Positions 8,214-63,538 of a DNA stretch of 64,000 bases are shown here, in pieces. The stretch spans positions 333,402 to 397,401 of the forward strand of contig CAVZHK010000001.1 in NCBI GenBank assembly GCA_963775055.1, read 5' to 3'. This DNA is from an uncultured Acidimicrobiaceae bacterium. Its GTDB lineage: Bacteria > Actinomycetota > Acidimicrobiia > Acidimicrobiales > CAIXPF01. Numbering within the stretch: position 1 is the stretch's first letter; each line of letters begins with the position of its first letter. The notes under the pieces were generated by a model. The model searched no databases. It was not told the origin of the DNA and saw nothing but the letters and a program-made list of their open reading frames with translations. A program made the translations under genes and the position numbers.

Positions 8214-8533
8214 ATGCAGCACCCGACAGGAAAGACCGCAGTGGTCACCGGCGCGGCGAGCGGGATGGGCCTGGCGTTCACCCGCATCTCGCAACGCCAG
8301 CACCGAAGCCAGATCCGACACGTCGGTTCGCACCGGATGCACGCTGCCGCGGCCGCTTCCCTGTTGGTGAGCTGCAGCATGCGGACTGGCAATGGATCCT
8401 GGGGGTGAACCTGTGGGGGGTCATCAACGGCTGCCAGGCCTCGCCGCCCGCCACCGCAGCATCGAGAGGGCGACCAACCCACCCCGGGCTTCGACATTGT
8501 TGGACTACCTGTTGGGCTGAGGGCGCTTGGTGA
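8214..8533 (+). pseudogene. short-chain dehydrogenase/reductase remnant
   Basis: One frame has GKTAVVTGAASGMGLAF (Rossmann TGxxxGxG). Another frame has ELQHADWQWILGVNLWGVINGCQA. I saw no catalytic Ser or YxxxK in any frame. Confidence 0.4.
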
Positions 8534-8551
8534 GCTCGGACCAGCGGCGCT

Positions 8552-9370
8552 TCAACGACCGGTGAACTCGGGGGGCCGCTTCTGGAGAAACGCCTGGCGG
8601 CCCTCTTCGAAATCGCCGGTCTGGCGGGCCAGGTGCAACGCCAGGCCCTGGTGTTCGTAGGCCCGGTCGATGTCGGTCTCCTGGTAACCCCGGTACACCG
8701 CGGCCTTCGTGTACCCGTAAACCCGGGTGGGGCCGACCGCCAGGCTGCGCGCCAGCGTTGCCGTGGCCTCGGCCAATTCGTCGTCGGGCACCACCTGGGT
8801 GGCCAGGCCCCATTGCAGGCACTCGGCCGGGGTGAGGGTGGGGGCCAGCAACGCCCACTCGATGGCCTTGCCCACCCCGACGTACTGCTGCAGCAGGCTG
8901 GTGCCGGTGGCGATGCCCCGCTTGACGAACGGCACCGCCAGCGTGGCGCTCTCGCCGATCAACCGCAGGTCCGCCGCCAGGGCAAGATTGAACCCGGCCC
9001 CGTGGGCGTGGCCGTTGACGGCGGCGATCACCGGTTTGGCCATGGCGCGCATGCGGGCCACGATCAAGGGCCAACGACCCTCGCCCCGCACGTACTGCTC
9101 GATGGGATCGCCTTTCATCATGGCGAACTCCCCCGGCGCGTTGAGCCCTCGCAGATCGTCACCGGCGCAGAACGCCCGCCCGGCACCGGTCAGCACCACA
9201 CACCGTACCGCGCGGTCTGCATCGAGGCCGTCGAGGGTGTCGAGCAGCTCGATGCCCATGCGACGGTTCAAGGCGTTGAGCACCTCGGGCCGGTTCATGG
9301 TGATGGTGGCCACGCCTTCGGCACGGTCGACGGTGAGGTGCAGCGGGGTGGGTGTCCCTGGCGTAGGCAT
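8552..9370 (-). CDS. enoyl-CoA hydratase/isomerase (crotonase) family
   Basis: ATITMNRPEVLNALN...VVLTGAGRAFCAGDDL...AAVNGHAHGAGFNLALAADL are crotonase signatures. The start is placed at ATG 9370 (MPTPGTP). Confidence 0.88.
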   Translation of the reverse strand: MPTPGTPTPLHLTVDRAEGVATITMNRPEVLNALNRRMGIELLDTLDGLDADRAVRCVVLTGAGRAFCAGDDLRGLNAPGEFAMMKGDPIEQYVRGEGRWPLIVARMRAMAKPVIAAVNGHAHGAGFNLALAADLRLIGESATLAVPFVKRGIATGTSLLQQYVGVGKAIEWALLAPTLTPAECLQWGLATQVVPDDELAEATATLARSLAVGPTRVYGYTKAAVYRGYQETDIDRAYEHQGLALHLARQTGDFEEGRQAFLQKRPPEFTGR

Positions 9371-9416
9371 CGCTTCGGTCGGCACGAGGCGACAACGTAA
9401 CTTACTGTTCGGACCC

Positions 9417-10457
9417 ATGAACGATGCCGACACCGCCGACAGCGGAGCAGCCAAGGCCCAAGCGCACGAGGCGTGGCTGGCGCAGGTCCAAGAGACCGCC
9501 CTCGAACCGGAGTTGCCGATCTGCGACGCCCACCATCATCTGTGGCTCGACACCGGCCACACCGGCTGGCCCTACCCCATCGAAGCCCTGCACGCGGACA
9601 CCAACACCGGGCACAACGTGGTGCACACGGTGTTCCTGGAATGCGGCGCCGAGTACCGCACCGATGGCCCGGCGCACCTGCGACCGGTCGGGGAGACGGA
9701 GTTCGTGGCTGCCACCGCCCAATCACCCGCGGCCGCCACCGGGGCCCAGATCGCCGCCATCGTGGGCTCCGCGGACGTGTTGCACCCGGCGTTGGACGCA
9801 GCCCTCGACGCCCACGAGGCCGCCGGCGCCGGCCTGTTCCGGGGCATCCGCTACATCGTGGCCCAGGACGACTACAAGCCGTTGTCGATGGGCACGCCGC
9901 CCGGCGTGATGCAGGACGCCCGCTACCTGGCGGGGGTCCGTCGTCTGGGCGAGCGGGGCTACAGCTACGACACGATGTGTTACTTCCCGCAGATTCCCGA
10001 GTTGGCCGGGGTGGCCCGGGCTTGTGAGGGCACCACGATGGTGGTCAACCACCTGTGCGGCCCTGTCGGGGTGGGGCCCTACAAAGACCGCCGGGCCGAA
10101 GTGCTGGCCCAGTGGCGCATCAACATGGCGGAGCTGGCCACCTGCCCCAACACCGTGCTGAAGCTGGGCGGAATCGGGATGCCGATGTACGGGCTGCGTT
10201 GGGACCGTCAGCCGGTGCCGCCCACCTCGCAGGAGCTGGCCGCGCCGTGGCAGGACGAGATCCGCTTCTGCATCGATCGCTTCGGGCCCGATCGCTGCTT
10301 CTTCGAATCCAACTTCCCGGTGGACAAGCGCGGTTGTAGCTATGTTGTGCTGTGGAACACGTTCAAGCGCATCGCCTCGATCTACACCGCGGATGAGAAG
10401 CGCGACCTGTTTCACAACAGCGCGGCGCGCGCCTATCGCATCGCCACCGTCGATTAA
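9417..10457 (+). CDS. amidohydrolase-2 family metal-dependent hydrolase
   Basis: ICDAHHHLW is the metal-binding motif, with a TIM-barrel hydrolase-like remainder (NFPVDK near the C-terminus). The start is ATG 9417. The first 230 codons of the 576-aa track ORF are antisense to the crotonase gene. Confidence 0.8.
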   Translation: MNDADTADSGAAKAQAHEAWLAQVQETALEPELPICDAHHHLWLDTGHTGWPYPIEALHADTNTGHNVVHTVFLECGAEYRTDGPAHLRPVGETEFVAATAQSPAAATGAQIAAIVGSADVLHPALDAALDAHEAAGAGLFRGIRYIVAQDDYKPLSMGTPPGVMQDARYLAGVRRLGERGYSYDTMCYFPQIPELAGVARACEGTTMVVNHLCGPVGVGPYKDRRAEVLAQWRINMAELATCPNTVLKLGGIGMPMYGLRWDRQPVPPTSQELAAPWQDEIRFCIDRFGPDRCFFESNFPVDKRGCSYVVLWNTFKRIASIYTADEKRDLFHNSAARAYRIATVD

Positions 10458-10472
10458 GCCGATTGAGCCGGC

Positions 10473-12008
10473 TCAGCCCCTGGGCGTGAAGCGCCTGGCG
10501 GCCTCCGCTGAGAGTGACGTCTTGTCTATCTTGGCGGTACCGGCAAGGGGGATCTCGTCAACGAACCACACCGCCCGGGGATGGGCGTAGGCCGGTCCGT
10601 GCTCGATGGACCATTGCCGCAGCTCGTCCTCGCTCAGCTCTTGCCCTGGGCCGCGCACCACGAACGCCACTGGCAGCGCTCCCTTCAGCGCATCGGGCAC
10701 CGCAACCACCGCGGCCTGATGCACCGCCGGGTGACGCTCCAGCAATTTCTCCACATCGCCGGGATAGATGTTCTCGCCACCGCAGACGAACATGTCATCG
10801 GCCCGCCCGACAAAGAAGAACCAACCGTCTTCGTCACGTTCCATCACATCACCGGTGTGATACCAGCCATCGGTCAAGCGGGTGGCGGTGACCTCAGGCA
10901 GGTTGTGGTAGCCGTTCATCACGCCCGGGCCCTTGATCCACAGCTCACCGGGGTTGGCGTCCGCGCCGGTGACGGGATCGGCCAGCCGCAACTGCACCGT
11001 GGACAAGGGGTAGCCGAGGGCGATCTTGGGGCGGGGTTTGGCTTCGGGGTGGGGGCCGAAGCTGGCGATGGCCTCAGTGGTGCCGTAGCCGTTGGTGATG
11101 ACCGCGTCCGGAAAGATGGCCCGCACCTGATCGAACAGGCCCTCGGTCATGGGGGCGGAGCCGATCATCAGGCGCCGTACACAGGACAGATCAAGGGTTG
11201 CCAACAGCTCGTGTTGGGCGGTCATGAGGGCGAACATGGTGGGCACGCCGGTCAGGCTGGTGGCCCGCTGCTGCGCCACCGCCCGCAGGTATTCGGCGGC
11301 GTCGAAGCGGGCCAGCAGCACGATCTGCCCGCCCAGCGCCAGGTTCACCTTCGTCTGCACCATGGCGTTCTTGTGGTACATCGGCGCCGACACCAGGATC
11401 CGCTCGTCGGGGCTCATGAAGAACCCGCCGCTGGTGTACTGATCCACGGTGAACAGCTGGCTGCCGTGGGACAGCAACACCCCCTTGGGCCGCCCGGTGG
11501 AACCCGAGGTGTACATCTGCACCGCCACCGCCGACGACTCCAACCAGACCATACCGTATGGTTCGGCCAGGTCCAGCAGCTGATGCCAACGATCGCTACC
11601 GATGAGCACTACGTCCACACCCGCGGGGGCCCGATCAGCGTTGCGTTCGTCGGCGAACACCACTCGGGCTCCGGCGTCACCCACGATGTACGCCAGCCCG
11701 TCCCGGCCCAACTTTGTGTTGAGCGGCACCGTGACCCCGCCCATGCGGCAGATGCCGAAGTAGAGGGCAGCGTAATCCACCGAGTTGTCCGCCAGGATGG
11801 CGACACGCTCGCCCACCGTGACCCCGAGTTGCACCAGTGAACCGGCAACCCGGGCGCAGCGCTGCTCGAAGTGGTCATAGCTGACGGTGGATGACTCGCG
11901 TCCGGGGGTGGTCACGGTCGCGGTGAGATCGAGGTAGGCGGTCTTGCCCTGGCCAAGGTGCGGTTGGTAGAGGGCCGCCAGATTCACCTCGCCCGGTGCC
12001 GCGCTCAT
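10473..12008 (-). CDS. AMP-dependent acyl-CoA synthetase/ligase
   Basis: Shows the AMP-binding motifs YTSGSTGRPKGV, GYGTTE and YHTGD. The stop overlaps the next gene. Confidence 0.9.
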   Translation of the reverse strand: MSAAPGEVNLAALYQPHLGQGKTAYLDLTATVTTPGRESSTVSYDHFEQRCARVAGSLVQLGVTVGERVAILADNSVDYAALYFGICRMGGVTVPLNTKLGRDGLAYIVGDAGARVVFADERNADRAPAGVDVVLIGSDRWHQLLDLAEPYGMVWLESSAVAVQMYTSGSTGRPKGVLLSHGSQLFTVDQYTSGGFFMSPDERILVSAPMYHKNAMVQTKVNLALGGQIVLLARFDAAEYLRAVAQQRATSLTGVPTMFALMTAQHELLATLDLSCVRRLMIGSAPMTEGLFDQVRAIFPDAVITNGYGTTEAIASFGPHPEAKPRPKIALGYPLSTVQLRLADPVTGADANPGELWIKGPGVMNGYHNLPEVTATRLTDGWYHTGDVMERDEDGWFFFVGRADDMFVCGGENIYPGDVEKLLERHPAVHQAAVVAVPDALKGALPVAFVVRGPGQELSEDELRQWSIEHGPAYAHPRAVWFVDEIPLAGTAKIDKTSLSAEAARRFTPRG

Positions 12009-13012
12009 GGCGTGAGCACGATCTTGCCGAAGAACGAGCGATCCTCGAGCAGCCCCATGGCCTCGGCACCCTGTTCGAGTGCCATGACCCGGTCCACCAC
12101 CGGCACCAGCTGCTTGGTGCGCACCAACTCCAGCAGGGCGTGCAGGTCGGCGCGCTTCCAGCCGTTGGAGCCCCGGATGTCCATCTCGGCGGTCCAGATG
12201 AAGCGGATGTCGGTGGGCGGGTCATACCCGGCAGTGGCGCCACAGGTCAGCAGCCGCCCGCCCTGCTTCACACAACGCAGCGAACGGGCCCAGGTGTCCC
12301 CACCGGTGAAGTTGACCACCACGTCGTAGCCGCCGCCGCTGAACAGCGTCCCGGTGGTACGGCGGGTGTGGTCGGCAAAGTCTTCGACGGAGTAGTCGAT
12401 GGTGTCATCGGCGCCCAGAGCCCGGAGCCGCTCGCATTTCTCGGCCGATCCGGCGGCGGCCACCACCCGGGCGCCGATCATCTTGGCCAACAGCAACGCG
12501 CTGGTGCCGACCCCGCCCGACGCGCCCAGGATCAACACACTCTCACCCGGCTGCAACCGGCCACGGGTGATCATCATCCGGTGTGAGGTGCCATAGGCCA
12601 CCGGCAGGCAGGAGGCGTCCAGCGCGGACACGCCATCGGGCAGCGCCAACAGCTGGGTGTGATCGATCACGACGTACTCGGCGTACGCACCCCAGCGGGT
12701 GTCTCCAATCATCCAGAACCGACCGGTGGCTTCATCGGTGAACACCGGATCGACCAGCACCCGCTGCCCGGGCGTCCAGCCCTCGACCCCTTCACCGAGT
12801 GAGTCGATCACCCCGGCGGCGTCGCACCCCGGCACCATCGGCAGCGGAACCTTGATGCCGGGCATGCCTCGCCGGGTGAACACGTCGTGGTAGTTGAGCG
12901 AGCATGCCTGGACCCGCACCCGCACCTGACCGGGCCCGGGTTCGGGGTCTGTCACGTCGCCGTAACGCAACACGTCGAGCCCCCCGTGCTGCGCGAACCA
13001 CACTGCCTTCAT
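12005..13012 (-). CDS. zinc-type alcohol dehydrogenase / quinone oxidoreductase family
   Basis: MKAVWFAQHGG..., an MDR-family layout and an ILGASGGVGTSA nucleotide-binding loop. The start is placed at ATG 13012. Confidence 0.85.
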   Translation of the reverse strand: MKAVWFAQHGGLDVLRYGDVTDPEPGPGQVRVRVQACSLNYHDVFTRRGMPGIKVPLPMVPGCDAAGVIDSLGEGVEGWTPGQRVLVDPVFTDEATGRFWMIGDTRWGAYAEYVVIDHTQLLALPDGVSALDASCLPVAYGTSHRMMITRGRLQPGESVLILGASGGVGTSALLLAKMIGARVVAAAGSAEKCERLRALGADDTIDYSVEDFADHTRRTTGTLFSGGGYDVVVNFTGGDTWARSLRCVKQGGRLLTCGATAGYDPPTDIRFIWTAEMDIRGSNGWKRADLHALLELVRTKQLVPVVDRVMALEQGAEAMGLLEDRSFFGKIVLTP

Positions 13013-13049
13013 GCTTGCTCCGTTCCGTGCGTCGTTCGGTTGGCGGCGT

Positions 13050-13544
13050 TCAGCCGGCGGCGGTAGACCACGTGCCGCGGCCCACCGCGACCAGGCGACC
13101 CTGATCATCATGCAGGTCGATGTCGCACACGGCGGCGCTGCGTCCGGCCCGCCGAACTCGGGCCGTGGCCACCAGGTCGGTGTTGAACGCTGGTCGGAGG
13201 TAGTCGATGCGGAGGTTCATGGTCGGCACGCCGTGGCCCACGACCGCGCTGACCGCGAACGTGCCGGCGGTGTCGATGACGGAAGCGATGGGCCCCCCGT
13301 GCACTTGTTCGCCGTTGGCCAGCCGGCTCAGGGAGACGTGAAACGGCAGTCGAAGTACGAACCGGCCGCTCTCGACGTCCACCTCCTCGACGATCATCCT
13401 CACCAGGTGGTGGAACGGCGCCTCATCAACGGTGGCCTGCATGCCGGGCACCGTGGCGACGATGGAGGGCGGCCCGGCAGAGGACTGCGGCTGGACCGGG
13501 GAGGGGCCGGCGACGGGACCGGAGTCGGAGGACATGGCGCACAT
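13050..13544 (-). CDS. PaaI-type hotdog-fold thioesterase
   Basis: The pattern VHGGPIASVIDTAG...RIDYLRPA...GRLVAVGRGTW is typical of PaaI/DUF4442-like thioesterases. The start may instead be ATG 13442 (MQATVDE). Confidence 0.75.
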   Translation of the reverse strand: MCAMSSDSGPVAGPSPVQPQSSAGPPSIVATVPGMQATVDEAPFHHLVRMIVEEVDVESGRFVLRLPFHVSLSRLANGEQVHGGPIASVIDTAGTFAVSAVVGHGVPTMNLRIDYLRPAFNTDLVATARVRRAGRSAAVCDIDLHDDQGRLVAVGRGTWSTAAG

Positions 13545-52133: not shown

Positions 52134-53548
52134 GGCGTGTCGTCCTGTTCTGGCTCGACCGATGCGACCGGCTGGTCGGTATCGGCGGCGGGGGTATCGG
52201 CGGGTGCAGCGATGAGGGACTCGGCTGATTCGCTGCCGGGCAGCTCCAACGAGGTCCGCTCGACGGGGTTACCGTCCTCATCGAGGATAGCGACCCGTTC
52301 CAGCACCCAGGTCAGCGCTTTGGACTTCTTGATGTCTGCTTTGATCTGGGCCAGGTGACCGGCCTCGGTCAGGGTCTGACGAAGATCCGGCGCCTCGCCC
52401 CCGAAACGGCGCGACAGCTCCTCGAAGTGGGTGTCGAGGTCCGCCTCGGTCAGCTCGACGGCTTCCTGGATGGCGATGGCCCGCAACGCCAGGTCGATCT
52501 TCACCGCGTGCTCCGACGCGGAGCGATGTTCCGCCACCAGATCGTCGGGGCTCTGACCGGTGACCTGCAGGTAGCGATTGAGGTCCATGCCCTGAGAGCG
52601 CATGCGCTGGTCCAGGCTGTTGAGCCGGGCGTTGAGCTCCGATTGCACCATGGGGTCCGGCACGTCGTCGGACACCAACGCCGCCAGCGCCTCCGCGGCC
52701 TGCTGTTGGTAGGCCATGTTGGCACCCACCAGCTTCGAACGCTGCAGCTGGGACCGATAGGCGTCACGCATGGCCTCGGCGTTGTCGAACTCGCTAACGC
52801 TGGCCACCCACTCGTCGGTGACCTCGGGCAGGACCCGGGCCTTGACCTCACGGACCTCGATGCTGAAGTGCAGCGGATCCTCACCCTCCTCGGGGTGGGG
52901 GGCGTCGAACTCAACGGTGTCTCCGGCGCTGGCGCCGCGCAGGTTCTCATCGATCTCGGGGACCACCCCGCCAGAGCCCACGTCATACACATAGTCGGTG
53001 GCGGTGAGCCCCTCGACCGGCTCGTCGTTCTGGTAGCCCTGGATGTCGATCAGGACCTGGTCCTCATCTTGGGCGGCCCGCTCGACGAGCTCGTATTCGG
53101 CGTTCTGCAGCCGCAACCGCTCGACCCGGGCCTCGACCTCGGACTCGTCGGCGTTCGGTGAGGGGATGGTCACCTGCAGCGACTCATAGCCGCTGATGGT
53201 GATGGTGGGGCGGGTCTGCACTACGGCCTCGAAGGCCACCGGACCGGCTTCTGCGCCGGAGGTGATCTCCAGCTCGGGGGCGGCGATCACATCCACCTCG
53301 TGCTCTTTCACCGCCTCGGCGTAGTACTCCGGCAGGGACTCCCGCAAGGCGTCCTGGCGGGCGATGCCGGTGCCCATACGGGCCTCAAGGACCTTGCGGG
53401 GCGCCTTGCCGGGCCGGAAGCCGGGCAGTTTCACCTGTTGGGCCAATCGCTTGAACGCAGCGTCGACCTGACCGTCTATCTCGGTGGCGTCCACCTCGAT
53501 GAGCAGCTTGACCTTGTTGCCTTCGAGGGTCTCCACCGTGCTCTTCAC
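52130..53548 (-). CDS. tig: trigger factor
   Basis: GTG start. [19 protein letters not shown]...[15 protein letters not shown], an FKBP-like middle domain and an acidic C-terminal tail. Confidence 0.95.
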
Positions 53549-53973
53549 AGGTGAGGCAGTGTAGTGACCGAAGTCCCGGTAGCGGGCAATACCCGACCCT
53601 CCGGTTGGCGGTCGGGTGGGCGTCTCAAATAACGCTCGCCGTTCTGGTCCACCGCTCGACCGTCGGCCCGCTCGTCGTAGACCTCGGTGATGACCCCGTT
53701 GGAGGCGGTGTGGGTGGTGAGCTTCACCCGCAGCACCCCGCTGCCGTTGATGGTGGTGCCGGCGGGTAGTTGGCTACAGGACGCCGCGGTCATGGTCCAC
53801 TCAACGCTGCGGTGGGTCACCTGCACGGACTTGTTGTGGCCGCGGCCGTCGCCGTCATGCTCGCGTTCATCGCCGTGGGCCGCGGCCGGCGCGGCCAGGG
53901 CCCCGCTCAACGCCGCCGCGGCCAACACCATCGCCCCGAAGCGTCGTGTGTTTGTCACCCGTGTCACTGCCAT
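53545..53973 (-). CDS. small secreted protein of unknown function (3' end uncertain)
   Basis: Signal peptide (RRFGAMVLAAAALSGALAAPAAAHG), a His/Asp/Glu/Gly-rich segment and a beta-rich region. The last 30 or so codons have poor GC3, and the stop overlaps the tig GTG (GTGA). Confidence 0.5.
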   Translation of the reverse strand: MAVTRVTNTRRFGAMVLAAAALSGALAAPAAAHGDEREHDGDGRGHNKSVQVTHRSVEWTMTAASCSQLPAGTTINGSGVLRVKLTTHTASNGVITEVYDERADGRAVDQNGERYLRRPPDRQPEGRVLPATGTSVTTLPHL

Positions 53974-54190
53974 CACTCCCCTTTGGAAAGGCTGATTCGT
54001 TGCTGCTGCGGATGGTCCCGCCGCCGTGAAAGGGGTACCAAGGCGGCCGTTCAAATCATTTCAAAGCCCTGAAACCACAGGGTGACACCGTCGTTCGGGA
54101 ACGTCGGGCACTTGTGGCGCTTCACTCCGCCGGGAATCGCACAGGTTTGGTCGGACCGTGCCGCCTCCACGTCTGGCCGTCACCGACGGG

Positions 54191-54484
54191 TCAGCGTGGC
54201 GTGCCGTCAACGATGAGCAATTGACCTTCCTGGCCAGCGGGCCGCAGCACGAAGCGGAACGAGGCCTCCTCGGGGCCAGCAGATGACGGCACCTGACCGT
54301 CGGCGTTGAGCTCCTCGATGCGGACCGACCCTTCGGTAACCGCGGCCAACAACGAGCCGGCCTCGGCCGCGATCGGTTCGACCGTGGTGAACGCGTGCCG
54401 CTGGTTGGGGAGCGATCGGCCGGCAACGTGCACGTCTGGCGCAAACGCCCTTCGACCGCACTCGACGGTTCGGAACTCGAGCAA
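54191..54484 (-). CDS. hypothetical small protein
   Basis: 97-codon ORF with high GC3 and a TTG or internal GTG start. I recognise no family. Confidence 0.35.
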   Translation of the reverse strand: MLEFRTVECGRRAFAPDVHVAGRSLPNQRHAFTTVEPIAAEAGSLLAAVTEGSVRIEELNADGQVPSSAGPEEASFRFVLRPAGQEGQLLIVDGTPR

Positions 54485-54618
54485 CTGATGAGCGCCGGAT
54501 CCGGTCTCAGCCCCGAGCAGGCCGTCGTGATGGCGGCGGCCGAGTTAGCGACGTTTCTGGCACCTCAGCCGCACCCGCACACCCGCCAGGCGGCCCGCAA
54601 CGGTCGTGAGGGAATCCG

Positions 54619-54692
54619 TCGGGGAGGGGAGATTTGAACTCCCGACCGCGTGCTCCCAAAGCACGTGCGCTACCTGGCTGCGCCACTCCCCG
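54619..54692 (-). tRNA. tRNA-Pro (anticodon UGG)
   Basis: A manual cloverleaf folds cleanly: acceptor CGGGGAG/CTCCCCG, D arm GCGC-AGCCAGGTA-GCGC, anticodon arm CGTGC-TTTGGGA-GCACG, T arm GGGAG-TTCAAAT-CTCCC, discriminator A. Confidence 0.93.
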
Positions 54693-55105: not shown

Positions 55106-56971
55106 ATGACCGCCTCGTCATCCCAGCATTGGCGGGAGCAGCTGTTACCCGGCCCTGCCGCCAGCACCGGGTATCGCACCGTTTTGATGGTGGGCACCAC
55201 CGGCGCCGGCAAGACCACCCTGATCCGTCAGCTGATCGGCACCGACCCCGTTCAGGAGCCGTTCCCGGCCACCTCTACGTTCAAGACCACCACCGCGGAG
55301 ACCGAGGTGCTCTGCGCCCCCGGCGACTACTACGCCGTAGCGGTGTTCGTCGAACGCCAAAAGGTCCGCCACGCCATTGAAGACTGTGTGGCGGCCTGCG
55401 CCCAGGCCCTGGCCGATGGTCGACCCCGTCAGGTGGCCCGTGACGCGCTGGCGGCGCACACCGATGAGCGGCTGCGTTTGGAGTATGTGCTGGGCGCCGA
55501 GTGGCTCGATGCCGCCGTCAACACCGTCGAAAGCGCCCTGCAGACCGACCCCCCCGCCGAGGGTGAGGACCTCGCCCCCCGGGTCAACGTGGACCCGATC
55601 CTGTCGGGCCTGGTCGATCACCTGTTGGCCGACGTCAACGCCCGCTTCGCCACCTTGCGCTACGGCCAGCTGCTCACCGAGGAGGACGCGACCTGGCCGC
55701 GCTGCTGGCGTTTCACCACCGACGAACGGGCCACGTTGTGGGCTGGTACCCGCCGATTGACCAGCAACGAACGGGGCAGCCACGGCACGCTCCTGTCACC
55801 GTTGGTGGAGGCCATTCGGGTGCGGGGGCCGCTGCATCCGACGTGGGCCAACGAGATCCCCTACTTGATGGTGGTGGACACCGAGGGTTTGGGTCACGTT
55901 CCCGTCACCGCCTCGTCGCTACCAGTGGGCGTGATCGAGCAGCTGGATCGAGCCGATCGCATTGTGGTCGTGGATGACGCCACCCACCCCATGCAGGCCG
56001 GTCCGCTGGCGGCGCTGCGTCAGTTGGTCATGGCCGGCCAGTTGGACAAGCTGGCGTTGTGCTTCACCCACGCCGACGACCTGAAGGGGCCCAACATCGC
56101 ATCCATCGCTGATCGCCTGGCGGTGCTGCGTCGTTCGGTGAACCAGGCGGTGGCCTCGTTGCGCGATGAGCTCGGCGAGACGGCGTGGCACGGGCTGAGC
56201 CGCCAGCTGGATGGCCACCTGTTCGTGTTCGGGCATCTGCAACGGCGTCTGGACTCCCGGGTCGAGGTCGACGCCGCCGTGGTGGAGGAGCTGCGGGGTT
56301 TGCTCCATTGGTTGCGGGCCGAGGCGGTGCCCATCGATACCTCGTCGTATCGGCCGGCGTATCGGCTGAACGATCTGCGGTCGCGCCTGCTGGTGGTGAC
56401 CGACGAGTTCGCCGCCACGTGGCCCGATCTCCTCAAGCGCACCCAGTGGCGCCAGGTGCAGGCGTTGTGCCGGCGGGTGGCTGGCGGGGACGACGGATAC
56501 GGTGAACTGCAGCCGGTGGCCCAGCTGACCGCCCGGTTGCTCGACGCGGTACGTGATTTCGCCGAGCATCCGCTGCGTTGGGCCGGGGTGACTCCCGCCG
56601 ATGAGGAGCAGTTGGCGGTGTTCGACCAGTTCACCCGGAGCGTGGCATCAGACGTGCTGGTTTCGGCAAGGGCGGCGCTGGCGGACCGACATCGGGACCA
56701 TTGGGCCGCGGTGGGCGAACTGAGCGGTCCCTCGGCGGCCAGCAGCCGAGTTGACCTCCTTGACGAGACGGTGTTCGCGACGTTGTCAAACACCAACTCC
56801 AAGGAGGTGACGCTGCTCGGTGACGTGATCGACATCGTGCGCCGCTCGGCCGAGGAGCACGGCTTCGACATCGGTGACGTGGTGGTCCCCGCCGGCAGCA
56901 TGTTCGACCGTGGACTGCCGGCCCTCGGAACCCAGCGCCGCCCCGGCCTGCCCGAACTGCGCGGCGCCTAA
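55106..56971 (+). CDS. large orphan P-loop GTPase-like protein
   Basis: The G1/Walker A motif is MVGTTGAGKTTLIRQLIG. A helical insert of about 200 aa follows. G3-like is MVVDTEGLG and G4-like is CFTHADDL. The roughly 300-aa helical C-terminal region has no recognisable family. Confidence 0.75.
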   Translation: MTASSSQHWREQLLPGPAASTGYRTVLMVGTTGAGKTTLIRQLIGTDPVQEPFPATSTFKTTTAETEVLCAPGDYYAVAVFVERQKVRHAIEDCVAACAQALADGRPRQVARDALAAHTDERLRLEYVLGAEWLDAAVNTVESALQTDPPAEGEDLAPRVNVDPILSGLVDHLLADVNARFATLRYGQLLTEEDATWPRCWRFTTDERATLWAGTRRLTSNERGSHGTLLSPLVEAIRVRGPLHPTWANEIPYLMVVDTEGLGHVPVTASSLPVGVIEQLDRADRIVVVDDATHPMQAGPLAALRQLVMAGQLDKLALCFTHADDLKGPNIASIADRLAVLRRSVNQAVASLRDELGETAWHGLSRQLDGHLFVFGHLQRRLDSRVEVDAAVVEELRGLLHWLRAEAVPIDTSSYRPAYRLNDLRSRLLVVTDEFAATWPDLLKRTQWRQVQALCRRVAGGDDGYGELQPVAQLTARLLDAVRDFAEHPLRWAGVTPADEEQLAVFDQFTRSVASDVLVSARAALADRHRDHWAAVGELSGPSAASSRVDLLDETVFATLSNTNSKEVTLLGDVIDIVRRSAEEHGFDIGDVVVPAGSMFDRGLPALGTQRRPGLPELRGA

Positions 56972-57019
56972 CCCCAACCCGGTCTCCGCCCGGCCCGCGT
57001 TAGTCTGTCCGGGTTCATT

Positions 57020-57090
57020 GCGGGTGTAGCTCAATGGCAGAGTCCCAGCCTTCCAAGCTGGTCATGCGGGTTCGATTCCCGTCACCCGCT
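57020..57090 (+). tRNA. tRNA-Gly (anticodon UCC)
   Basis: A manual cloverleaf folds cleanly: acceptor GCGGGTG/CACCCGC, anticodon arm CCAGC-CTTCCAA-GCTGG, T arm GCGGG-TTCGATT-CCCGT, discriminator T. Confidence 0.93.
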
Positions 57091-57092
57091 CC
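57049..57092. repeat. attL core (44 bp, within tRNA-Gly)
   Basis: Identical to 62915-62958. Confidence 0.9.
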
Positions 57093-58270
57093 GTTAAATG
57101 TCCAGGTCAGGGCCCTGATGGGCGTCCGGCCCGGTAACAGGATTGGCTGTACCCCGCGAGAAACCCGCGACCGTTCCGCTTCGACCTCGGCGCCCACCCG
57201 CTCGGCGATGGCCTTCAATCGGCCTTCGGCAGCGTGCTGGTAACGCAGGGCGGCCCGAACGCTGGAATGGCCCAACAGCCGCTTCAGCTCGGCCAGGGTG
57301 GCCCCGTGCTGTGCGGCCAGGGTGCCGGCAGTGTGGCGGAGATCATGGGAAATGGACGTCCGGCGCTCCGACCATGTCCCGGGCCCTGGTCCAATGCTTC
57401 TGGTGCCACACCGGGGACATGAGGCCACCTTGCTCGCCCGGGAACAGCGGCGCGTCGCCTTCCGGGCCGCCGAAGTGGGTGAGGTGGTCATCGAGAGCGT
57501 CAAGGAGGAACCGCGGCAGGTGATCGGTCCGATGCCCCGCCGCGGTCTTCGGGCCCTTGACCCGGCCGAGCTTGTCGATTGTGCGGGTCACCGAGATGGT
57601 GCCGTGGCACCGGTCGAAGTCCCGCTGCCGCAGCGCGCGAAGCTCCGAGATTCGGTAGCCGGCGCCGAACGCGGCGAGCAGGATCATGGTGCGCAATCGA
57701 GGGTGGGCCGCCTCGGCCAGGGCAAGCACCACCGTCGGTTCGACGTAGGGCCGCTCGGGGGTGTCCTCCTGGCCAGCGCCCTTGATCCGGCACGGGTTGC
57801 GGCCCAGGAGGGTGTCATCGACAGCGGTGGCGAGGATCGACCGCAGCGATCGGTAGGCCTTGGCGGTGGCCACCGGCGCTTTCGGCCGGGACTCGACCAC
57901 CCAGCGCTCCACCTGTTCGGCGCTGATTCGCTGCAGCGGGCTGCTCCCGAACGCCGGCAGCAAATGGGTGTGGAGCAGCTGCCGGTACAGCTCCAAGGTG
58001 CGCACGGCCAGGCTGCGACGCGTCAGCCAGGACTCGGCGTACTCGGCGAACAGCCGCCGCCCGCCGCGCAGATCTACCTCGATACCTGTGGACCGCTTGG
58101 CGTCGACGTTCGCGGCGAACGCCCCGGGCATCCTCGAACGTCCGAAGGCGCCTCGTCTGCTCGCGCTGGTTCGGTGCGGGGCGCCAACGGACCTCGTATC
58201 CGACCACCCTGGCGTCGCGGGGTATACGAGGCGAGAGATCGATGCCATGGCCGCGGATCGTACGACCGCG

Positions 58271-58486
58271 CTATGACAGCGATGATTTGGCGTTCGCAGC
58301 GCGTCGTGCCGCGACGAAGGAGTACAGCGCCTCGACCGGCACACGGGTGGCGCGGCCGACGTGCACCACCTCCAAGTCGCCGCTGCCGATGAGCTCGTAG
58401 ATGGTGCTCCGACCGAGCGCCAACACCTCCGCGGCCCGCCGCACAGTCACGAGCAACTGCCCGGCTTCTTCGTCCTCGATGGTCAT
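58271..58486 (-). CDS. excisionase-type helix-turn-helix DNA-binding protein
   Basis: LLVTVRRAAEVLALGRSTIYELIGSGDLEVVHVGRATRVPVEAL is an excisionase/MerR-like HTH. It lies directly upstream of the integrase. Confidence 0.8.
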   Translation of the reverse strand: MTIEDEEAGQLLVTVRRAAEVLALGRSTIYELIGSGDLEVVHVGRATRVPVEALYSFVAARRAANAKSSLS

Positions 58487-59061
58487 GCCCCTGCTAAGCG
58501 CGTCGACAACACAAGATTCGACGGCTGTCGGTTCTCTCTGCCACAAGGCCGGCCGAGCCGCGAAGCCGTCGGCATCACGCCCAACAGGGCTGGGGCCGGC
58601 GTGGTGAACGCATGGAGTATGTCAGCCCACCGGCGCTCAGCCTGCGTTGTGTCCGCGGTCCATCACGACCAAGAGCAGGTGCGTCGACGGGCGTCGAGCC
58701 GCCACGGACACGCGGTGAAACGCTCCACACCAATGGCGCAGCACCCGCGGAACCGATCCGTCGCGCGGGCGGAGACTGACAGACAAGCGTCCAAACCCGA
58801 CTCGACCGCGGTTTACCGACACGCCCTCGGCGACTTCGCCATCGCCCGACCAGCATCACCGCAGCGACCCTGTCAATCCAACTTCAGAGCCGCGACGCCT
58901 GGTGCTGGCGCGGCCCGCTTCGGTGGGCGGCCCGGCCTGTCAATGATCAGCACTGTTCCCTTGCGGCAAGCGCCGGCTGCGATGGCCCACGGTGTCGCCG
59001 ACGGCAGGTCCGATGGCCCGCCCGGAGGAACCTCATGCGCGCTGGACACCGGGCCCCCGTC

Positions 59062-59096
59062 GGGTCCGGGGCGGGATCGAACTCGGAGGTCTTGAG
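59062..59096. repeat. 35-nt copy 1 of an internal direct repeat with tRNA T-arm-like sequence
   Basis: GGGTCCGGGGCGGGATCGAACTCGGAGGTCTTGAG. Copy 2 lies at 61958-61990 and differs by two single-base indels. Confidence 0.85.
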
Positions 59097-59320
59097 AGCT
59101 ACGGTCCTTGCCGTGTCTCGGCCCGAGCCCCTTCAGCTGCGGCGGAAGTTCTGCCAGTTCGCCGCTGTTGGTGGTCCGCGGCGGGGTCAACGCTTTGCGC
59201 GATGAGCTGATCCTGCGCGCCACGGCGTTGACCAGAGCCCGTTGAGGGATTCGACGGCATCAGCGTCTTCGAGGCACCTGACAGACAGGGCTCGAGGAAC
59301 TTGCTCGGCAGATCCCCGCG

Positions 59321-59767
59321 ATGGCAGAACGCCCAATGGTCCAGGTGGCTGCCGGCATGGAGATCAGACGGGCCGGGTTCCCGCTGCTCGACACCGCCGG
59401 AGAGCTGCACTGGACCATTGCACTCGCGGACACCAGCGCTGACACGCTCGCCCGTCTTCGTGCGGTGTTCAGCGACCCACTGGCCAACCCGGGCTATCAG
59501 CGCCGCCTGCGACGCGAGAATCCTCTCCTGATGGCGACCGGGAGCTACGACGTGTGGTACGACCCGAACGAGGTCGATGCCAACAACCATGCCTCGGTGC
59601 TGCGCGACTGGGCTCGAGCCGATCTCGAAATCACGATTGGCCGGGTAATCCTCGCCGGCGACGATGAACTCGAACCGGTACCAGCACGGATTCTTGCGTA
59701 CAACGACAGCACCGGCATTATCACCATCGAACTCCTTCTTGGAACGACCCGCATCGCCGTCGCCTGA
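59321..59767 (+). CDS. hypothetical protein (island cargo)
   Basis: 148-codon ORF with a protein-like sequence and moderately high GC3. The overlapping 256-aa minus-strand ORF looks like an antisense shadow. I recognise no family. Confidence 0.5.
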   Translation: MAERPMVQVAAGMEIRRAGFPLLDTAGELHWTIALADTSADTLARLRAVFSDPLANPGYQRRLRRENPLLMATGSYDVWYDPNEVDANNHASVLRDWARADLEITIGRVILAGDDELEPVPARILAYNDSTGIITIELLLGTTRIAVA

Positions 59768-59923
59768 TCGGATAGGCCGGATCCCTGGAGGGAGCCCGGA
59801 TTTTGGGAGATGGGATATTTTGCCGCCCACGCGGCCCGAGATCCGGCACCGAGCGCGTTGAGCGATCACCCCTCTTTCTTCAGGAGTTGACGGAATCTCG
59901 CCAGGCGAGTGATCGAAGTGTTG

Positions 59924-60125
59924 CTATCTGTCAACGGTGCGGATGGCAGCAGCGACTGCAAGGTGGCCGTTGCGCTCTGCGAGTGCTTCGGGAGTTAGCC
60001 CGTCGACAGTTTGCTCAGGCGAAATGAAGTGCTGTCCAGCCACGTTCGTCAGTCACCGACAGGTCTGCGCCCAGTGCCACCAGCTGATCGATCGGACAGT
60101 GACACGGGGCAGGATAGTGGGCTAC
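59924..60125 (-). pseudogene. ankyrin-repeat-like fragment with frame break
   Basis: Manual translation gives IDQLVALGADLSVTDERGWTALHFA-stop. One frame over it continues QTVDGLTPEALAERNGHLAVAAAIRTV, following the G-x-TALH / G-x-TP ankyrin pattern. It is too short to appear in the ORF track. Confidence 0.3.
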
Positions 60126-60185
60126 TCGGCGGAGCCGGAACCGGCGAGCCGACGATCGGGAACGACCGGCTATGCCGGGGTGGCG

Positions 60186-60999
60186 TCACGCGAGCCACGT
60201 GAGGATGTCTTGGGCGAGTGTTTCCCAGCCTGGTTCTTGGAGGAGCCAGTGTCCGTGGCCTGGGTAGATGTGGGGCGCGACGCGGTAGTGGCGGGCGGTG
60301 TTGGTCAGGAGGCGTTTGGAGATGATGCGGTCTTGGTCGCCGCCGGCGAACGAAGACGGGGACGGTCACCTTCGTGGCGTCGATCCGGATGGTGCCCAGC
60401 AGGAGTGAGCGGTAGACCCGTCCGGATTCTGGTGTGAGATGGGCGTGTATGGCGGGGCGCTCGTGTTCGGGTACGGCGTTGAGGGCGAGGACAGAGCAGG
60501 CGTTGTTGCCGACGACGAACGGTCGGCCGGTCATGATGGCACCCATCTTGGGCGCGAATCGCGGCAGGGCGATCGCTTGGGCGGTGAGTGTGCGCGGGGG
60601 AGCTGAAGCGATCAGGGCGATGGCCCGTGCTCGGCCCTGCTCAGCCAAGCGTTGCGCGAGCAATCCGCCGAGGCTGTGGCCGATGACGATGGGGATGTCG
60701 CCGAGTTCCTCGATGATCCGGTTGGTGTCCGCGAGGTAGTCGTCGAAGGTCAGGCCGGCGGCGTTGGTGGGGCCGACGCCGTGGCGACCTCGACGAGCGG
60801 GCGCGCACGCCTCGTAGCCGGCCGCAGCGAACCGCTCGACCCATCCGGCGAAACAGTGCTCATCGGCGAAGGCCCCGTGGAGGAACAACACCGGGGCCGC
60901 GCCTCGGCGCGCACGGCTCGGGCGTCGATAGAGCGCCGGGAACCCGGCAACGACGGTGGCGGCGTCGGGAGCGCGATGCTCGATCGGTGTGGTGTCCAT
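60186..60999 (-). pseudogene. alpha/beta hydrolase, frame broken by a 4-bp tandem duplication at 60347-60354
   Basis: The nucleophile elbow is VIGHSLGG. After VTVPVF the frame is lost. The continuation AGGDQDRIISKRLLTNTARHYRVAPHIYPGHGHWLLQEPGWETLAQDILTWLA-stop is in the other frame. The junction reads TTCG TTCG on the minus strand. Confidence 0.8.
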
Positions 61000-61227
61000 G
61001 AAGGCCTCCTTCGTCGATCGCACGGGTCGGGCAAAGCGATGCAGGCAGACGCCTCCCGACAGGTCGTCATGCTGCACTCTGCAGCGCACAGATTCGCTGG
61101 ATCCTCACAATGCCTGGTCTGAAGTCCGAACGGGGCGTTTCGGCTGGGATGATGCGACGCCAGCGCCGTGGCCGCTGGTCTAGTTCCGCGGTGTCGTCGT
61201 GCCAGACGCCCGCAGAAGATCAGCGCA

Positions 61228-61632
61228 TCAGCTGGGGTCAGCCATCTCGAAGGGGCCGCACAACACCACGACGTAGCCGTCGGCGTCGGCGAACGTCGCC
61301 TCGTGATGATGCGCAACGGGGTTCCAGTGCGGCTGCTCGACGATCGTGGCGCCCGTGCCTCGAGCTCGCTCGACGAGGACGTCGAAGGCGTGTTTGTCAG
61401 CCGTCTCGAACCAGAGGGACACGCCTGCGCCAACCGTCATGTCGGCGGCGACTGAGAACGCCCGACCGTGCTCATCAGCGTCAAGTCGATGCAGCTGGAG
61501 CACGAAGTCGTCGCCGTCGAACAACATCTCGAACTCGTCGCCGCCATGGCCCGATCGCAGACCGAGGCTTGATTGGTACCAGGCGCTCGCGGCGGCAACG
61601 TCACGCACTTGCAGCATTGGCCGGAGCTTCAT
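61228..61632 (-). CDS. glyoxalase/VOC family protein (island cargo)
   Basis: MKLRPMLQVRDVAAASAWYQSSLGL...GVSLWFETAD...ATFADADGYVVVL. The start is placed at ATG 61632. Confidence 0.75.
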   Translation of the reverse strand: MKLRPMLQVRDVAAASAWYQSSLGLRSGHGGDEFEMLFDGDDFVLQLHRLDADEHGRAFSVAADMTVGAGVSLWFETADKHAFDVLVERARGTGATIVEQPHWNPVAHHHEATFADADGYVVVLCGPFEMADPS

Positions 61633-61957
61633 GGAGAACAGCGTAGAAGGCAGACCGGCGGCAAGTGGCGCGTCCGCTGCACCACCGGTCAGTGCCCGGT
61701 AACGAGTTACCCCAACCCACACAGAACAGTCAGACGGCGGTGCGCCACCGCTCGGCGTACGCCACTCGGTAACGGCCATTACGAGTGCTTTCCACGTCTG
61801 AGACTGGAACTCTGTGGCCACCTAGGGCGACCGGCCACCAATGTTCGGCTTGGTGGCCGCCAGTAGGCAGATTCCGATGGCCGCCGACACCTCGATCGTG
61901 AGAGCGGGGCAATGCTGCGTTGGCACGTCCTGGGGACGTTTGACACAGAGCCCCTTG

Positions 61958-61990
61958 TGGGTCCGGGGCGGATCGAACTCGGAGGCTTGA
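61958..61990. repeat. copy 2 of the internal direct repeat
   Basis: GGGTCCGGGGCGGATCGAACTCGGAGGCTTGAG. Confidence 0.85.
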
Positions 61991-62213
61991 GGGCCACCCG
62001 GCGATGTAGCTCCACCCCTTCGAACATTTGCAGTCCCGTTCGATGCCCGATACTCCACATGCCACACCACGCGGTCCGCTCGACGGCGTCGAACGCCTCC
62101 GGCATCCGGAGATCGGACGCGCCAACTTCGAGGAAGAGAACATCGTCGATGTCCGGGCGAAGCGAACGGGTGAGATCGTGGGGCTTCAGTGGGTTGGCGC
62201 GTAGGTTGGGCGT

Positions 62214-62474
62214 GTGCCACGGATCAGCGAGTTCTACGGGATCGCTATCTACATGTACTTCAGCGATCACAACCCGCCGCACTTCCACGCGATCTATGCC
62301 AAGCACGAGGCGTTGATCGGAGTCGACAACGGCTCCACCATCGGCGGCGAGTTACCCAAGACAGCCGCACGACTCGTCGAGCAATGGCGCGCCGCAAACG
62401 AGGCCGAACTCGCGCGAAACTGGGACCTCGCGCAGGTACCTGCTCCCCTGCTGAGCATCGAGCCCCTCCAGTAG
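62214..62474 (+). CDS. DUF4160 domain protein
   Basis: MPRISEFYGIAIYMYFSDHNPPHFHAIYAKHEALI is the hallmark DUF4160 N-terminus. Confidence 0.85.
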   Translation: MPRISEFYGIAIYMYFSDHNPPHFHAIYAKHEALIGVDNGSTIGGELPKTAARLVEQWRAANEAELARNWDLAQVPAPLLSIEPLQ

Positions 62475-62477
62475 ACT

Positions 62478-62780
62478 GTGCACGTGGCTGTTCTCGCCCG
62501 AGTGACCGAAGTCGAACACGTCGGAGATCGCACCTTGCGCATCGTCTTTTCCGATGGGCTCGTTCGAGAACTCGATTTCACAGGCGTACTACCCGGCATT
62601 CTCGCGTCACTCGATGATGACATCACCTTTGCCAGCGCAACGGTAGATCGGACCGCAGGAACGGTGTGCTGGCCAAACGGCCTCGACCTCGACCCCGATG
62701 TCTTGCACGGTGATCGCCAGCCAGCGTCAACGCCCCAACCACGTGTGGTGCGCGAGTACCGGCTCCAGGCAACCGGCTGA
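62478..62780 (+). CDS. DUF2442 domain protein
   Basis: LRIVFSDGLVRELDF...VCWPNGLDLDPDVL is the DUF2442 pattern. It starts 3 nt after the DUF4160 stop. Confidence 0.8.
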   Translation: MHVAVLARVTEVEHVGDRTLRIVFSDGLVRELDFTGVLPGILASLDDDITFASATVDRTAGTVCWPNGLDLDPDVLHGDRQPASTPQPRVVREYRLQATG

Positions 62781-62914
62781 TCATCGGACGGCGCATCGCT
62801 GTACCCCGCGAAACCCCGCGACCGCCCCTGGCCACCGAGGTCCGCTGTGTCGATCGCAGGTCTGTGACCAGCCCATTTCGTCCGTTATCGTCCGCCGGAA
62901 TCCAGCCCGGGCAC

Positions 62915-62958
62915 CCTTCCAAGCTGGTCATGCGGGTTCGATTCCCGTCACCCGCTCC
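62915..62958. repeat. attR core (44 bp, duplicated tRNA-Gly 3' segment)
   Basis: Identical to 57049-57092. The upstream sequence does not continue the tRNA, so this is a partial tRNA copy. Confidence 0.9.
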
Positions 62959-63538
62959 ACGAAAAGACCTGGTCAATTGGGGCGGACTCCGGGTGACCAC
63001 CCTCCCGAGTTGTCGTCGTGCCCCGCGGTGGAGTCCCCAAGTCTGACTCGGGTCGGCCCTGTCGACGTGATCCGCTTCGGCCAGAGGGTCAGAGCCAGCC
63101 AGCATCTCCGTGCGCTGTTACGCCGCGCTCTCGCCCTACTGTTGCTGAGCTCGGCGTCTTAGCCGTCAACAACTTGCCGACCGTGTCACGTGGCACCCGG
63201 TCGAGGCCTTCAAGATCGCCGTGCGACTGCACGTCCGCGGCGAGTTGCCGCCAGAGCCTGGCAGTTGCGGGCCATGAGAACCCCACTGGGACCACCACCA
63301 GAGGCACACCGAGCAGCAACCGTGCTTGTGCTTCTCGACGATGGCGGTGTCGTCGACTGAGGAGTAGTGCAGGTCTTCACGCGCTCGGATGCCGGCAATT
63401 GCCGCCTGCGCGCCGTGGGTGAACCTGACACGCCTCCGCAGGGTGGGTCGGACGCACCGGAGCTGACCAGGACTGCAAGGCTCTGGCGCCCATCCCTCCT
63501 TACGTTGAGCGAACAGACCGAGGCGTATCGTGCCCGCC

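Follow-up and report, generated by a model that had tools for sequence, protein, structure and literature searches.

We analyzed a gene in a 64,000-nucleotide stretch of DNA, hereafter the window, from an uncultured Acidimicrobiaceae bacterium (assembly GCA_963775055.1, contig CAVZHK010000001.1), which an earlier note had described as an orphan encoding a GTPase-like protein in the gap between two tRNA genes. The gene is intact, belongs to a family of dynamin-like GTPases, and is a stably inherited chromosomal gene rather than cargo of the mobile element beside it. As that note had proposed, it is a single large gene: the open reading frame (ORF) is uninterrupted and its start codon is backed by the N-terminus "..WREQLLPGP..GYR", which is common to 18 relatives. 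Its position between tRNA-Pro and tRNA-Gly was likewise borne out. The features that define this slot are:

55106..56971, + strand: complete gene of the dynamin-like GTPase family; ORF of 621 amino acids (aa) with an ATG start and a stop codon at 56969-56971.
54618..54692, - strand: tRNA-Pro(UGG), left edge of the slot, placed by ARAGORN and Rfam.
57020..57092, + strand: tRNA-Gly(UCC), right edge of the slot and attachment (att) site of the adjoining element, placed by ARAGORN and Rfam.

The encoded protein is acidic (pI 5.3), and 65 homologs align with it over its full length. Public assemblies contain an identical protein, encoded on a contig of 783 kb, and a mate from its 90% cluster is labeled "hypothetical protein" in an Acidimicrobiales metagenome-assembled genome (MAG). 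The gene has a GC content of 0.68 and a GC3 of 0.85, and its neighbors are alike in this respect. The distance from tRNA-Pro to the start codon is 413 bp, which agrees with the length of about 410 bp given previously, but the description of this gap as ORF-free does not hold, as shadow ORFs of 67-123 aa overlap it, which is typical for DNA of 68% GC. The gap contained no Rfam match, and we found in it no sigma-70-like promoter and no intrinsic terminator; a comparison with locus L030, the closest relative with genomic context (80% protein identity, gap of ~220 bp), showed no conservation beyond the tRNA. Because it holds shadow ORFs only, matches no RNA, promoter or terminator, and is not conserved in L030, we consider the upstream gap unremarkable.

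To describe the anatomy of the protein, we used an AlphaFold2 model built from an alignment of 66 family sequences (pLDDT 92.6, pTM 0.91 for the full protein), together with column conservation over the same 66 members. These define the following parts, all on the + strand:

55175..55354: G domain, first part, residues 24-83 (secondary structure and column conservation).
55193-55216: P-loop/G1 GTTGAGKT, after strand 1 and before helix 1 (conservation).
55289-55291: switch I/G2, invariant T62 (conservation).
55355..55855: family-specific G2-G3 insertion, residues 84-250 (model and conservation).
55856..56095: G domain, second part, residues 251-330 (model and conservation).
55877-55888: Walker B/G3, D258-T-E-G261, conserved as D258-x-E260-G261-L-G-H264 with H264 invariant.
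56066-56077: G4-like T321-H322-A-D324, conserved as T321-H322-x followed by D (54 members) or E (11 members).
56096..56905: C-terminal domain, all helices, residues 331-600; P470, W533 and R548 are invariant (model).
56906..56968: basic tail, residues 601-621, of low confidence (pLDDT 45-51, pI 11.5).

In the model an N-terminal helix precedes strand 1 of the G domain. The G1 pattern is G30xxG33xG35K36[T/S], with G30-T37 invariant or nearly so; together with the G3 (VVDTEGLG) and G4 (FTHADD) motifs that had been read from the sequence, it is present and conserved across the members. Switch I is followed by a beta-hairpin (residues 65-81), and the G2 threonine sits before, not within, the G2-G3 insertion. 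The spacer of about 200 aa previously noted between G1 and G3 is thus real, but it is not helical throughout: a helical subdomain of about 100 aa (residues 84-183; 103-191 aa across the family) is followed by a beta-rich block (residues 186-250) that is strongly conserved, with invariant W197, G227 and R238 and the motifs W197-P-x-x-W201 and "RVRGPxHPxW". The distance from G2 to G3 is 195-283 aa in 66 of 66 members, and this spacing is a hallmark of the family. Strands and helices link G3 to G4 in the model, and position 322 of G4 is occupied by His in 64 members and by Lys in two. The G3 sequence "DTEGLG" may resemble the switch II motif of guanylate-binding proteins. The helical nature of the C-terminal half was confirmed by the model, and this domain has no recognizable enzymatic fold. 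The terminal RGA is common to nine orthologs. As a separate observation, the tail of the ortholog group (residues 589-621; 56870-56968) carries a conserved "...GFDIGDVV.PAG.VFGR" before this RGA end and is predicted to be disordered.

The protein had been judged not assignable to dynamin, a view that structure searches overturned. Thirty-three entries of the PDB matched the model in Foldseek at E<=1e-3, and 32 of them, including the best 23, are members of the dynamin superfamily; the lone exception is a G-alpha chain. The best match is SynDLP (E 1.2e-7), and the other superfamily matches include DLP1/2, IniA, BDLP, CmDnm1, MFN1/2, Fzo1, EHD4, dynamin, OPA1 and Drp1. Vps1, MxA and GIMAP7 come next, just above E 1e-3. 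Foldseek probabilities were ~1.0 over ~420-780 aligned columns. A search of the BFVD viral library gave giant-virus dynamins as its top named matches. The closest structures are those of bacterial dynamin-like proteins, namely Nostoc BDLP (2j69), Campylobacter DLP1/DLP2 (5oxf/5owv), Mycobacterium IniA (6j72/6j73) and Synechocystis SynDLP (7zw6/9em9), which matched at E 1e-7 to 7e-6 and probability 1.0 over ~600-780 columns, with global TM-scores of 0.24-0.34. Like these proteins, the window protein is a large GTPase with a G2-G3 insertion followed by long helices, but the insertion of its family is much larger (the spacing of 195-283 aa given above). Because Escherichia coli CrfC/RdcA (YjdA) has a 133-aa insertion at this place, between T103 and D236, we regard the G2-G3 insertion as an exaggerated dynamin-like feature rather than a foreign domain. 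RdcA also shares the order G1, G2 Thr, PG-turn hairpin and long insertion before G3; unlike the window protein, it has a canonical NKFD G4, a DTPG G3 and a partner gene, rdcB. At the level of the fold, the modeled G domain belongs to the dynamin superfamily, with bacterial dynamin-like proteins as its closest structures, and we consider it very likely that the protein is a dynamin-like GTPase of a large family.

Several observations weigh against this assignment. When compared with solved dynamin-like proteins, the model gives low global TM-scores (0.2-0.34 overall); a low global score is expected for multi-domain hinge proteins, but it also means that the similarity is not of a rigid-body kind. 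The C-terminal half modeled alone (residues 325-621, pLDDT 89.8) had no significant PDB match (best E 0.33), the MxA stalk appearing for this half at E ~1, and it is unmatched to the stalk or trunk of solved bacterial dynamin-like proteins. Because of the low TM-scores and this unmatched half, "dynamin-like" rests on the G domain and the overall architecture, and on the model the C-terminal half would be neither a recognizable effector nor a demonstrable dynamin stalk; the effector-like tail that had been suggested thus found no structural counterpart. Against Pfam PF00350 (Dynamin_N) the window protein scores 17.1 bits, below the gathering score of 27. An hhalign comparison with CrfC/RdcA gave a probability of 16.5% with the single sequence and of 25.6% with a low-diversity alignment of 15 sequences, the latter match spanning the G1-G2 hairpin over 71 columns. 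No transmembrane segment was found by linear hydropathy and charge (maximal 19-residue Kyte-Doolittle mean of 1.0). The gene is single, whereas bacterial dynamins are usually arranged as tandem pairs, and its G4 is THxD/E rather than N/TKxD, at the right position but with His in place of Lys. Because of this G4 the nucleotide could be ATP, which is used by EHD proteins.

Sequence profiles were less informative than structure. Single-sequence and profile searches of Pfam, NCBIfam, PADLOC and PDB sequences returned sub-threshold matches at the level of the P-loop only, among them AAA_22 and septin as well as MMR_HSR1, Dynamin_N, LRRK2 Roc and GIMAP, the last four being the matches of the first part of the G domain. 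Across the family, Dynamin_N matches 25 of 66 members, all below threshold (best 4.4e-6), the PADLOC LeoA profile 22 of 66 (best 2e-8) and LeoBC 10 of 66. The LeoA match sometimes extends across G3-G4 and beyond, and in several homologs it aligns to the region of residues 251-330. In a profile search of PDB sequences with the family alignment, EHD4 was a weak match over positions 333-542 (E 0.027). The Pfam gathering score is not reached by any member, and no Pfam or PADLOC model covers the family.

The weak LeoA and LeoBC matches bear on Eleos, a dynamin-like GTPase system (LeoA/LeoBC) found in defense islands whose P-loop is required for defense (Millman et al. 2022, bioRxiv 10.1101/2022.05.11.491447). 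These matches are too weak for membership, and the window protein itself matches neither profile. The Eleos operon consists of two consecutive dynamin-like genes, unlike the single gene here; there is no paralog within the window, and no second dynamin-like gene is conserved beside the homologs in 31 loci. A second comparison is offered by the DO-GTPase/GAP1 systems, which are built on TRAFAC GTPases whose Walker B region holds a conserved glutamate and which occur in mobile conflict neighborhoods (Kaur et al. 2020, PMC7159879). These systems require a GAP1 partner, downstream or fused, usually together with GASH or FNIII components, and often have N-terminal zinc ribbons (PMC7159879). The window family is like them in being a GTPase with a Walker B-region glutamate, E260, whose relatives lie in mobile conflict neighborhoods, but we found no GAP1, GASH, FNIII or zinc ribbon here and no conserved downstream gene, and no DO-GTPase family is among the listed Pfam matches. 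Membership in MADS was rejected, as the mad8 match covers the P-loop only (residues 24-65, E 8.5e-5); the MADS model makes mad6-8 mandatory, and no mad6-mad8 genes neighbor the window gene. Matches to mad2 and mad3 were also rejected as a link to MADS, since the one mad2 match that was mapped is a methyltransferase and the mad2 matches are likely generic methyltransferase matches. Assignment to Era/Obg/Der-type GTPases (MMR_HSR1) was rejected because the match reaches 18.5 bits against a cut-off of 21.9, covers residues 26-57 only, and the distribution of the family is patchy. The family is distinct and unmodeled, and lies within or beside the dynamin superfamily.

We then compared the slot with related loci. 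Among the matches listed, six independent metagenome-derived loci carry proteins 67-80% identical to the window protein in the tRNA-Pro/tRNA-Gly slot. Loci L001, L003 and L010 share the order tig, tRNA-Pro, GTPase gene, gene for an 800-aa secreted protein, tRNA-Gly. In L004 the GTPase gene abuts tRNA-Gly but is separated from tRNA-Pro by four unrelated genes; L031 is arranged as the window, with an inverted tRNA-Pro and an integrase past tRNA-Gly; and in L030 the GTPase gene lies beside an inverted tRNA-Pro, with a STAND-kinase neighbor in place of tig. The housekeeping block pbp2-mreDCB-ndk-folC-clpX-clpP-tig is kept on the left of the slot, with tig-clpP-clpX beside it wherever the contig includes that flank. 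Identity to the window in the orthologous loci is 67-70% for the GTPase, 67-72% for Tig, 78% for FolC, 90-93% for ClpP and 92-99% for ClpX. Because the GTPase diverges at the rate of Tig, synteny is conserved, and its GC and GC3 match those of its neighbors, we conclude that inheritance is vertical; the signature is that of long vertical inheritance under purifying selection rather than of recent acquisition. The earlier note had named a core gene in a conserved housekeeping neighborhood as an outcome that would speak against its proposal; such a neighborhood was found for the ortholog group and not for the wider family.

Other features of these loci vary. The 795/801-aa and 554-aa neighbors in the orthologous loci are secreted repeat proteins. 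The strand of tRNA-Pro(UGG) in the window, L030 and L031 is opposite to that in L001, L003, L004 and L010, yet the tRNA always neighbors the GTPase gene. This pattern suggests that a local inversion or rearrangement, broken at the tRNA, took place in the sublineage of the window. The spacer from tig to tRNA-Pro (window 53549-54617) is 1.07 kb, compared with ~180 bp in L001, and contains an ORF of 169 aa (53545-54054, - strand) with a signal-peptide-like start and one of 97 aa (54191-54484, - strand), neither with a homolog in any related locus fetched. Past the tRNA-Pro of L030 (2218-7440, - strand) lies a gene whose product, 1740 aa long, combines BTAD, protein-kinase, AAA_16/nSTAND1 and WD40 domains.

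The gene does adjoin an integrative island, as had been noted, in the form of a 5.9-kb integrative element inserted at the 3' end of tRNA-Gly(UCC) (57020-62975), with integrase and Xis genes between its two att copies. Its features are:

57046-57109 and 62912-62975: att direct repeats from the 3' part of tRNA-Gly; 57 of 64 bases identical, with a nearly perfect tRNA-derived core.
57015-58344, - strand: tyrosine integrase, apparently frameshifted; the N-terminal 333 aa end in "...APDVHFP*".
58271-58546, - strand: Xis/HTH-like ORF.
60049-61089, - strand: alpha/beta-hydrolase-like ORF.
L031 12004-12838: integrase at tRNA-Gly, the same integrase as in the window.
L004/L005 about 11924-13347: integrase at tRNA-Gly, a different one (39% identical).

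The catalytic part of the window integrase ("HDLRHTAGT...Y") continues in another frame (ORF 57015-57503), and the L031 integrase, which is 93% identical, reads through in a single frame; the window copy is either a pseudogene, in which case the element is immobilized, or an assembly error. With insertions in the window, L031 and L004/L005, integration at tRNA-Gly(UCC) has recurred in this lineage. The element lies wholly to the right of tRNA-Gly, so the GTPase gene is not part of its cargo, and the view of the gene as accessory cargo, drawn from its position beside the island, is contradicted by its place outside the att bounds, its host-like composition, its synteny and its Tig-like divergence.

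Far from being an orphan, the gene has 59 homologs in a word-indexed protein search, and an exhaustive search of a database with one representative per 50%-identity cluster matched 714 cluster representatives at E<=1e-3, of which 465 also pass E<=1e-10 and 216 pass E<=1e-30. A profile search of the word-indexed database with the family alignment found no further, more remote relatives, and no homolog was found in the phage genomes searched. The names met in the source records are "hypothetical protein", "GTPase domain-containing protein", "predicted GTPase" and one EcfA2, which is likely a misannotation. Genome matches come from Acidimicrobiales, Streptomyces, Hydrogenedentota, Planctomycetota, Eremiobacterota, Bacteroidota, Ignavibacteria, Longimicrobiales and Vicinamibacterales, and from Alpha-, Beta-, Gamma- and Deltaproteobacteria, so that the family is patchy across >10 phyla. 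Together, these searches reveal a large family of stand-alone GTPases, themselves large, that has no name and of which the window gene would encode an intact and functional member.

Related loci were found in a scan with a 19-sequence alignment, and those listed are a lower bound on the number that exist. An all-against-all BLAST of ORFs across 31 loci identified no conserved partner gene: the ORFs that recur are the family itself, shadow ORFs within the family gene, and the syntenic tig, clpP and clpX only. Because no partner gene is conserved in these loci, we regard the family as stand-alone. A "553-aa partner" in L009 was rejected on recognition that it is GroEL, and small upstream genes in Rhodococcus plasmids were rejected as partners because they are common to only two closely related plasmids. 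A second GTPase subfamily in Acidimicrobiia (L011, L017 and L027) is 37-39% identical to the window protein, and one MAG holds both an ortholog (L010) and this divergent paralog (L017). In three of three loci the second subfamily is preceded by a co-oriented, unannotated ORF of ~305-317 aa, 64-79% identical among them (L011 256-1170; L017 9014-9928; L027 6841-7794), which is absent from the window and the orthologous loci.

More distant homologs occur in different surroundings. A branch of ~750-aa proteins is repeatedly embedded in mobile or defense DNA, with loci that contain AbiEi/AbiEii and a serine recombinase; an integrative and conjugative element (ICE) with TraD, MobA/TraI, a PIN-Phd toxin-antitoxin pair and integrases; a zeta toxin, a transposase, SduA_C (Shedu-like) and a helicase; a PglX-like methyltransferase, MTaX1 and DUF2357; PDC-S68 with a type IIG restriction-modification (RM) system; a TmtA-like gene; Tn7 TnsA; and a type I system with a BfiI-like RM system. 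Eleven homologs are on plasmids (five of Rhodococcus, two of Rhizobium, and one each of Agrobacterium, Bradyrhizobium, Azospirillum and Caballeronia), where neighbors include type I RM, an Abi protein, BrxL (BREX), a CBASS-like pair of patatin and nucleotidyltransferase, a DUF3883 helicase with a GIY-YIG nuclease, and a DGQHR protein with a radical-SAM enzyme. One metagenomic homolog, P0087 (934 aa), has an N-terminal Swt1-type HEPN RNase (PF18731, HEPN_Swt1, E 8.3e-28, above the Pfam cut-off) fused to the GTPase, and is the only clear effector fusion that we met. The ~750-aa homologs instead carry a conserved N-terminal module of ~100 aa (e.g. L006 10001-10300) with the motif "W.VIFRHP.R.D..G..G.RVR.GLGT.DE.EA..L..QLN.LL", which is absent from the window protein. 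This module has no PDB match and only weak DUF6538 matches (3 of 14, E ~0.003); it may resemble the arm-type DNA-binding domains of integrases. In L028, a gammaproteobacterial MAG, a distant homolog lies within 8 kb of the trigger factor gene (1-666 and 8001-10295), in a block with a zeta toxin, transposase, SduA_C and helicase; its closeness to tig may be a coincidence or may reflect a tRNA- or tig-proximal hotspot in other phyla.

Family-wide, then, the gene behaves like conflict-system cargo, being found on plasmids, in an ICE, a transposon and defense islands, and occasionally fused to a HEPN RNase. The idea that it acts in a conflict system, which had been put forward from the sequence, is thus supported for the family by its defense and mobile neighbors, its 11 plasmid members and the HEPN fusion, and is not demonstrated for the copy in the window. 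A conflict-associated dynamin-like GTPase is our best overall reading, with about even chances of being correct, and we assign a defense or stress role to this specific copy only tentatively, at somewhat below even chances. Set against this reading are the neighbors of the window copy and of its closer actinobacterial relatives, which are housekeeping or metabolic genes; syntenic retention over a long time at the divergence rate of Tig, which is unusual for defense genes; and the size of the contextual evidence, in which, of 22 long-branch and plasmid loci outside the ortholog group, 13-15 have defense or mobile genes within ~5 kb, a small sample with no matched control.

By analogy with the dynamin superfamily, the P-loop, the switch I Thr62, Asp258/Glu260/Gly261 and the THxD motif would bind nucleotide, probably GTP; binding would lead to dimerization or oligomerization of the G domain, and dimerization would stimulate hydrolysis. 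Hydrolysis could then move the two parts that would form the output surface, namely the enlarged G2-G3 insertion and the helical C-terminal domain. As the window protein has no fused enzyme, we infer that its output would be mechanical or scaffolding, such as assembly on a membrane, a nucleoprotein or a structure of an invader or phage. In the Acidimicrobiales lineage, one copy may have entered the tRNA-Pro/tRNA-Gly slot next to tig-clpP-clpX at an early time, independently of the 5.9-kb element now at tRNA-Gly, and been inherited vertically since. An extended form of this proposal, possible but on balance unlikely, is that the family is an unrecognized single-gene anti-phage or anti-plasmid module built on a dynamin-like GTPase with exchangeable N-terminal heads, a prokaryotic counterpart of Mx and GBP, of which Acidimicrobiales would hold a headless, chromosome-fixed copy that still works by assembling, driven by GTP, on a structure of the invader. 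The heads would be the Swt1-type HEPN RNase and the ~100-aa module, which is possibly nucleic-acid-binding.

The main rival explanation is a domesticated cellular function, in which the protein is a non-immune dynamin-like protein for membrane remodeling or envelope stress, as are IniA, DynA and SynDLP, and a core gene of its lineage for which the defense contexts of relatives are irrelevant. This would be in keeping with the membrane-active nature of the bacterial dynamin-like proteins that are its closest structures, with synteny beside the mreBCD-ndk-folC-clpX-clpP-tig block and divergence at the rate of Tig, with host-like composition, and with the actinobacterial homologs at middle distance (36-47% identity), which sit among metabolic genes or beside groES-groEL. 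It is harder to reconcile with the lack of a transmembrane segment by linear hydropathy, with a helical C-terminal half that resembles no stalk or trunk among the solved dynamin-like proteins, with a family that is patchy over >10 phyla and borne on plasmids and ICEs rather than core, and with the divergent paralog in the same MAG as an ortholog. We regard this explanation as unlikely, though a serious competitor. The Bacillus subtilis protein DynA, a chromosomal and vertically inherited dynamin-like protein that protects against phage (PMC8844932, PMC12998192), is a precedent for a dynamin-like protein that looks like a housekeeping factor and has an immune effect; unlike the window protein, in which neither feature is evident, DynA binds membranes and is a fusion with two heads. 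Among known systems, the protein would work most like bacterial dynamin-like proteins, and those tied to defense, Eleos LeoA/LeoBC and DynA, are its closest counterparts in concept.

A role as a regulatory GTPase switch for a partner protein is improbable; its model would be RdcA, which carries Pfam Dynamin_N and is annotated in the MG1655 record as a dynamin-family regulator of diguanylate cyclase. A soluble, acidic protein without an effector and the similar layout of G1, G2 and hairpin with an insertion before G3 would fit such a role, but no partner is conserved in the 31 loci, whereas rdcB follows rdcA, the hhalign similarity is weak (the 25.6% given above), and the neighborhood suggests no regulated target. 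The leaning of the earlier note toward a conflict sensor with a helical tail effector, here a STAND/AAA-type ATPase, draws on sub-threshold Pfam matches (AAA_22, AAA_16, nSTAND_NTPase5, nSTAND3 and NACHT) and on the conflict contexts of relatives; it is largely refuted by the fold search and very improbable, because those matches cover the P-loop only (residues 17-107), the model shows GTPase features (switch I Thr, DxxG and THxD), the structural neighbors are dynamins rather than STAND or AAA+ proteins, and the tail has no effector-like match. We accordingly rejected STAND/AAA membership. Delivery of the gene by the adjacent island, suggested by an integrase and Xis element that starts 72 bp beyond the tRNA-Gly neighboring the gene, is already refuted and can be set aside, as the att repeats place the element wholly to the right of the tRNA, and the gene is in place at loci that lack the element (L001, L003 and L010) as well as at L004, where the site holds a different integrase.

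In eukaryotes, GTPases of the dynamin superfamily such as Mx and GBP have a central part in immunity to viruses, and to our knowledge bacterial dynamins have so far been tied to defense only through the two-gene Eleos system and DynA. The assignment at the level of the fold replaces "hypothetical protein" and generic GTPase labels for this family, and the window gene illustrates that adjacency to an island is not evidence of cargo status. If a conflict-associated role is correct and the family defends against phages or plasmids, it would broaden the link between dynamins and defense and provide a compact one-gene system to dissect, and the plasmid homologs of cultured Rhodococcus, Azospirillum, Caballeronia and Bradyrhizobium make the family testable.

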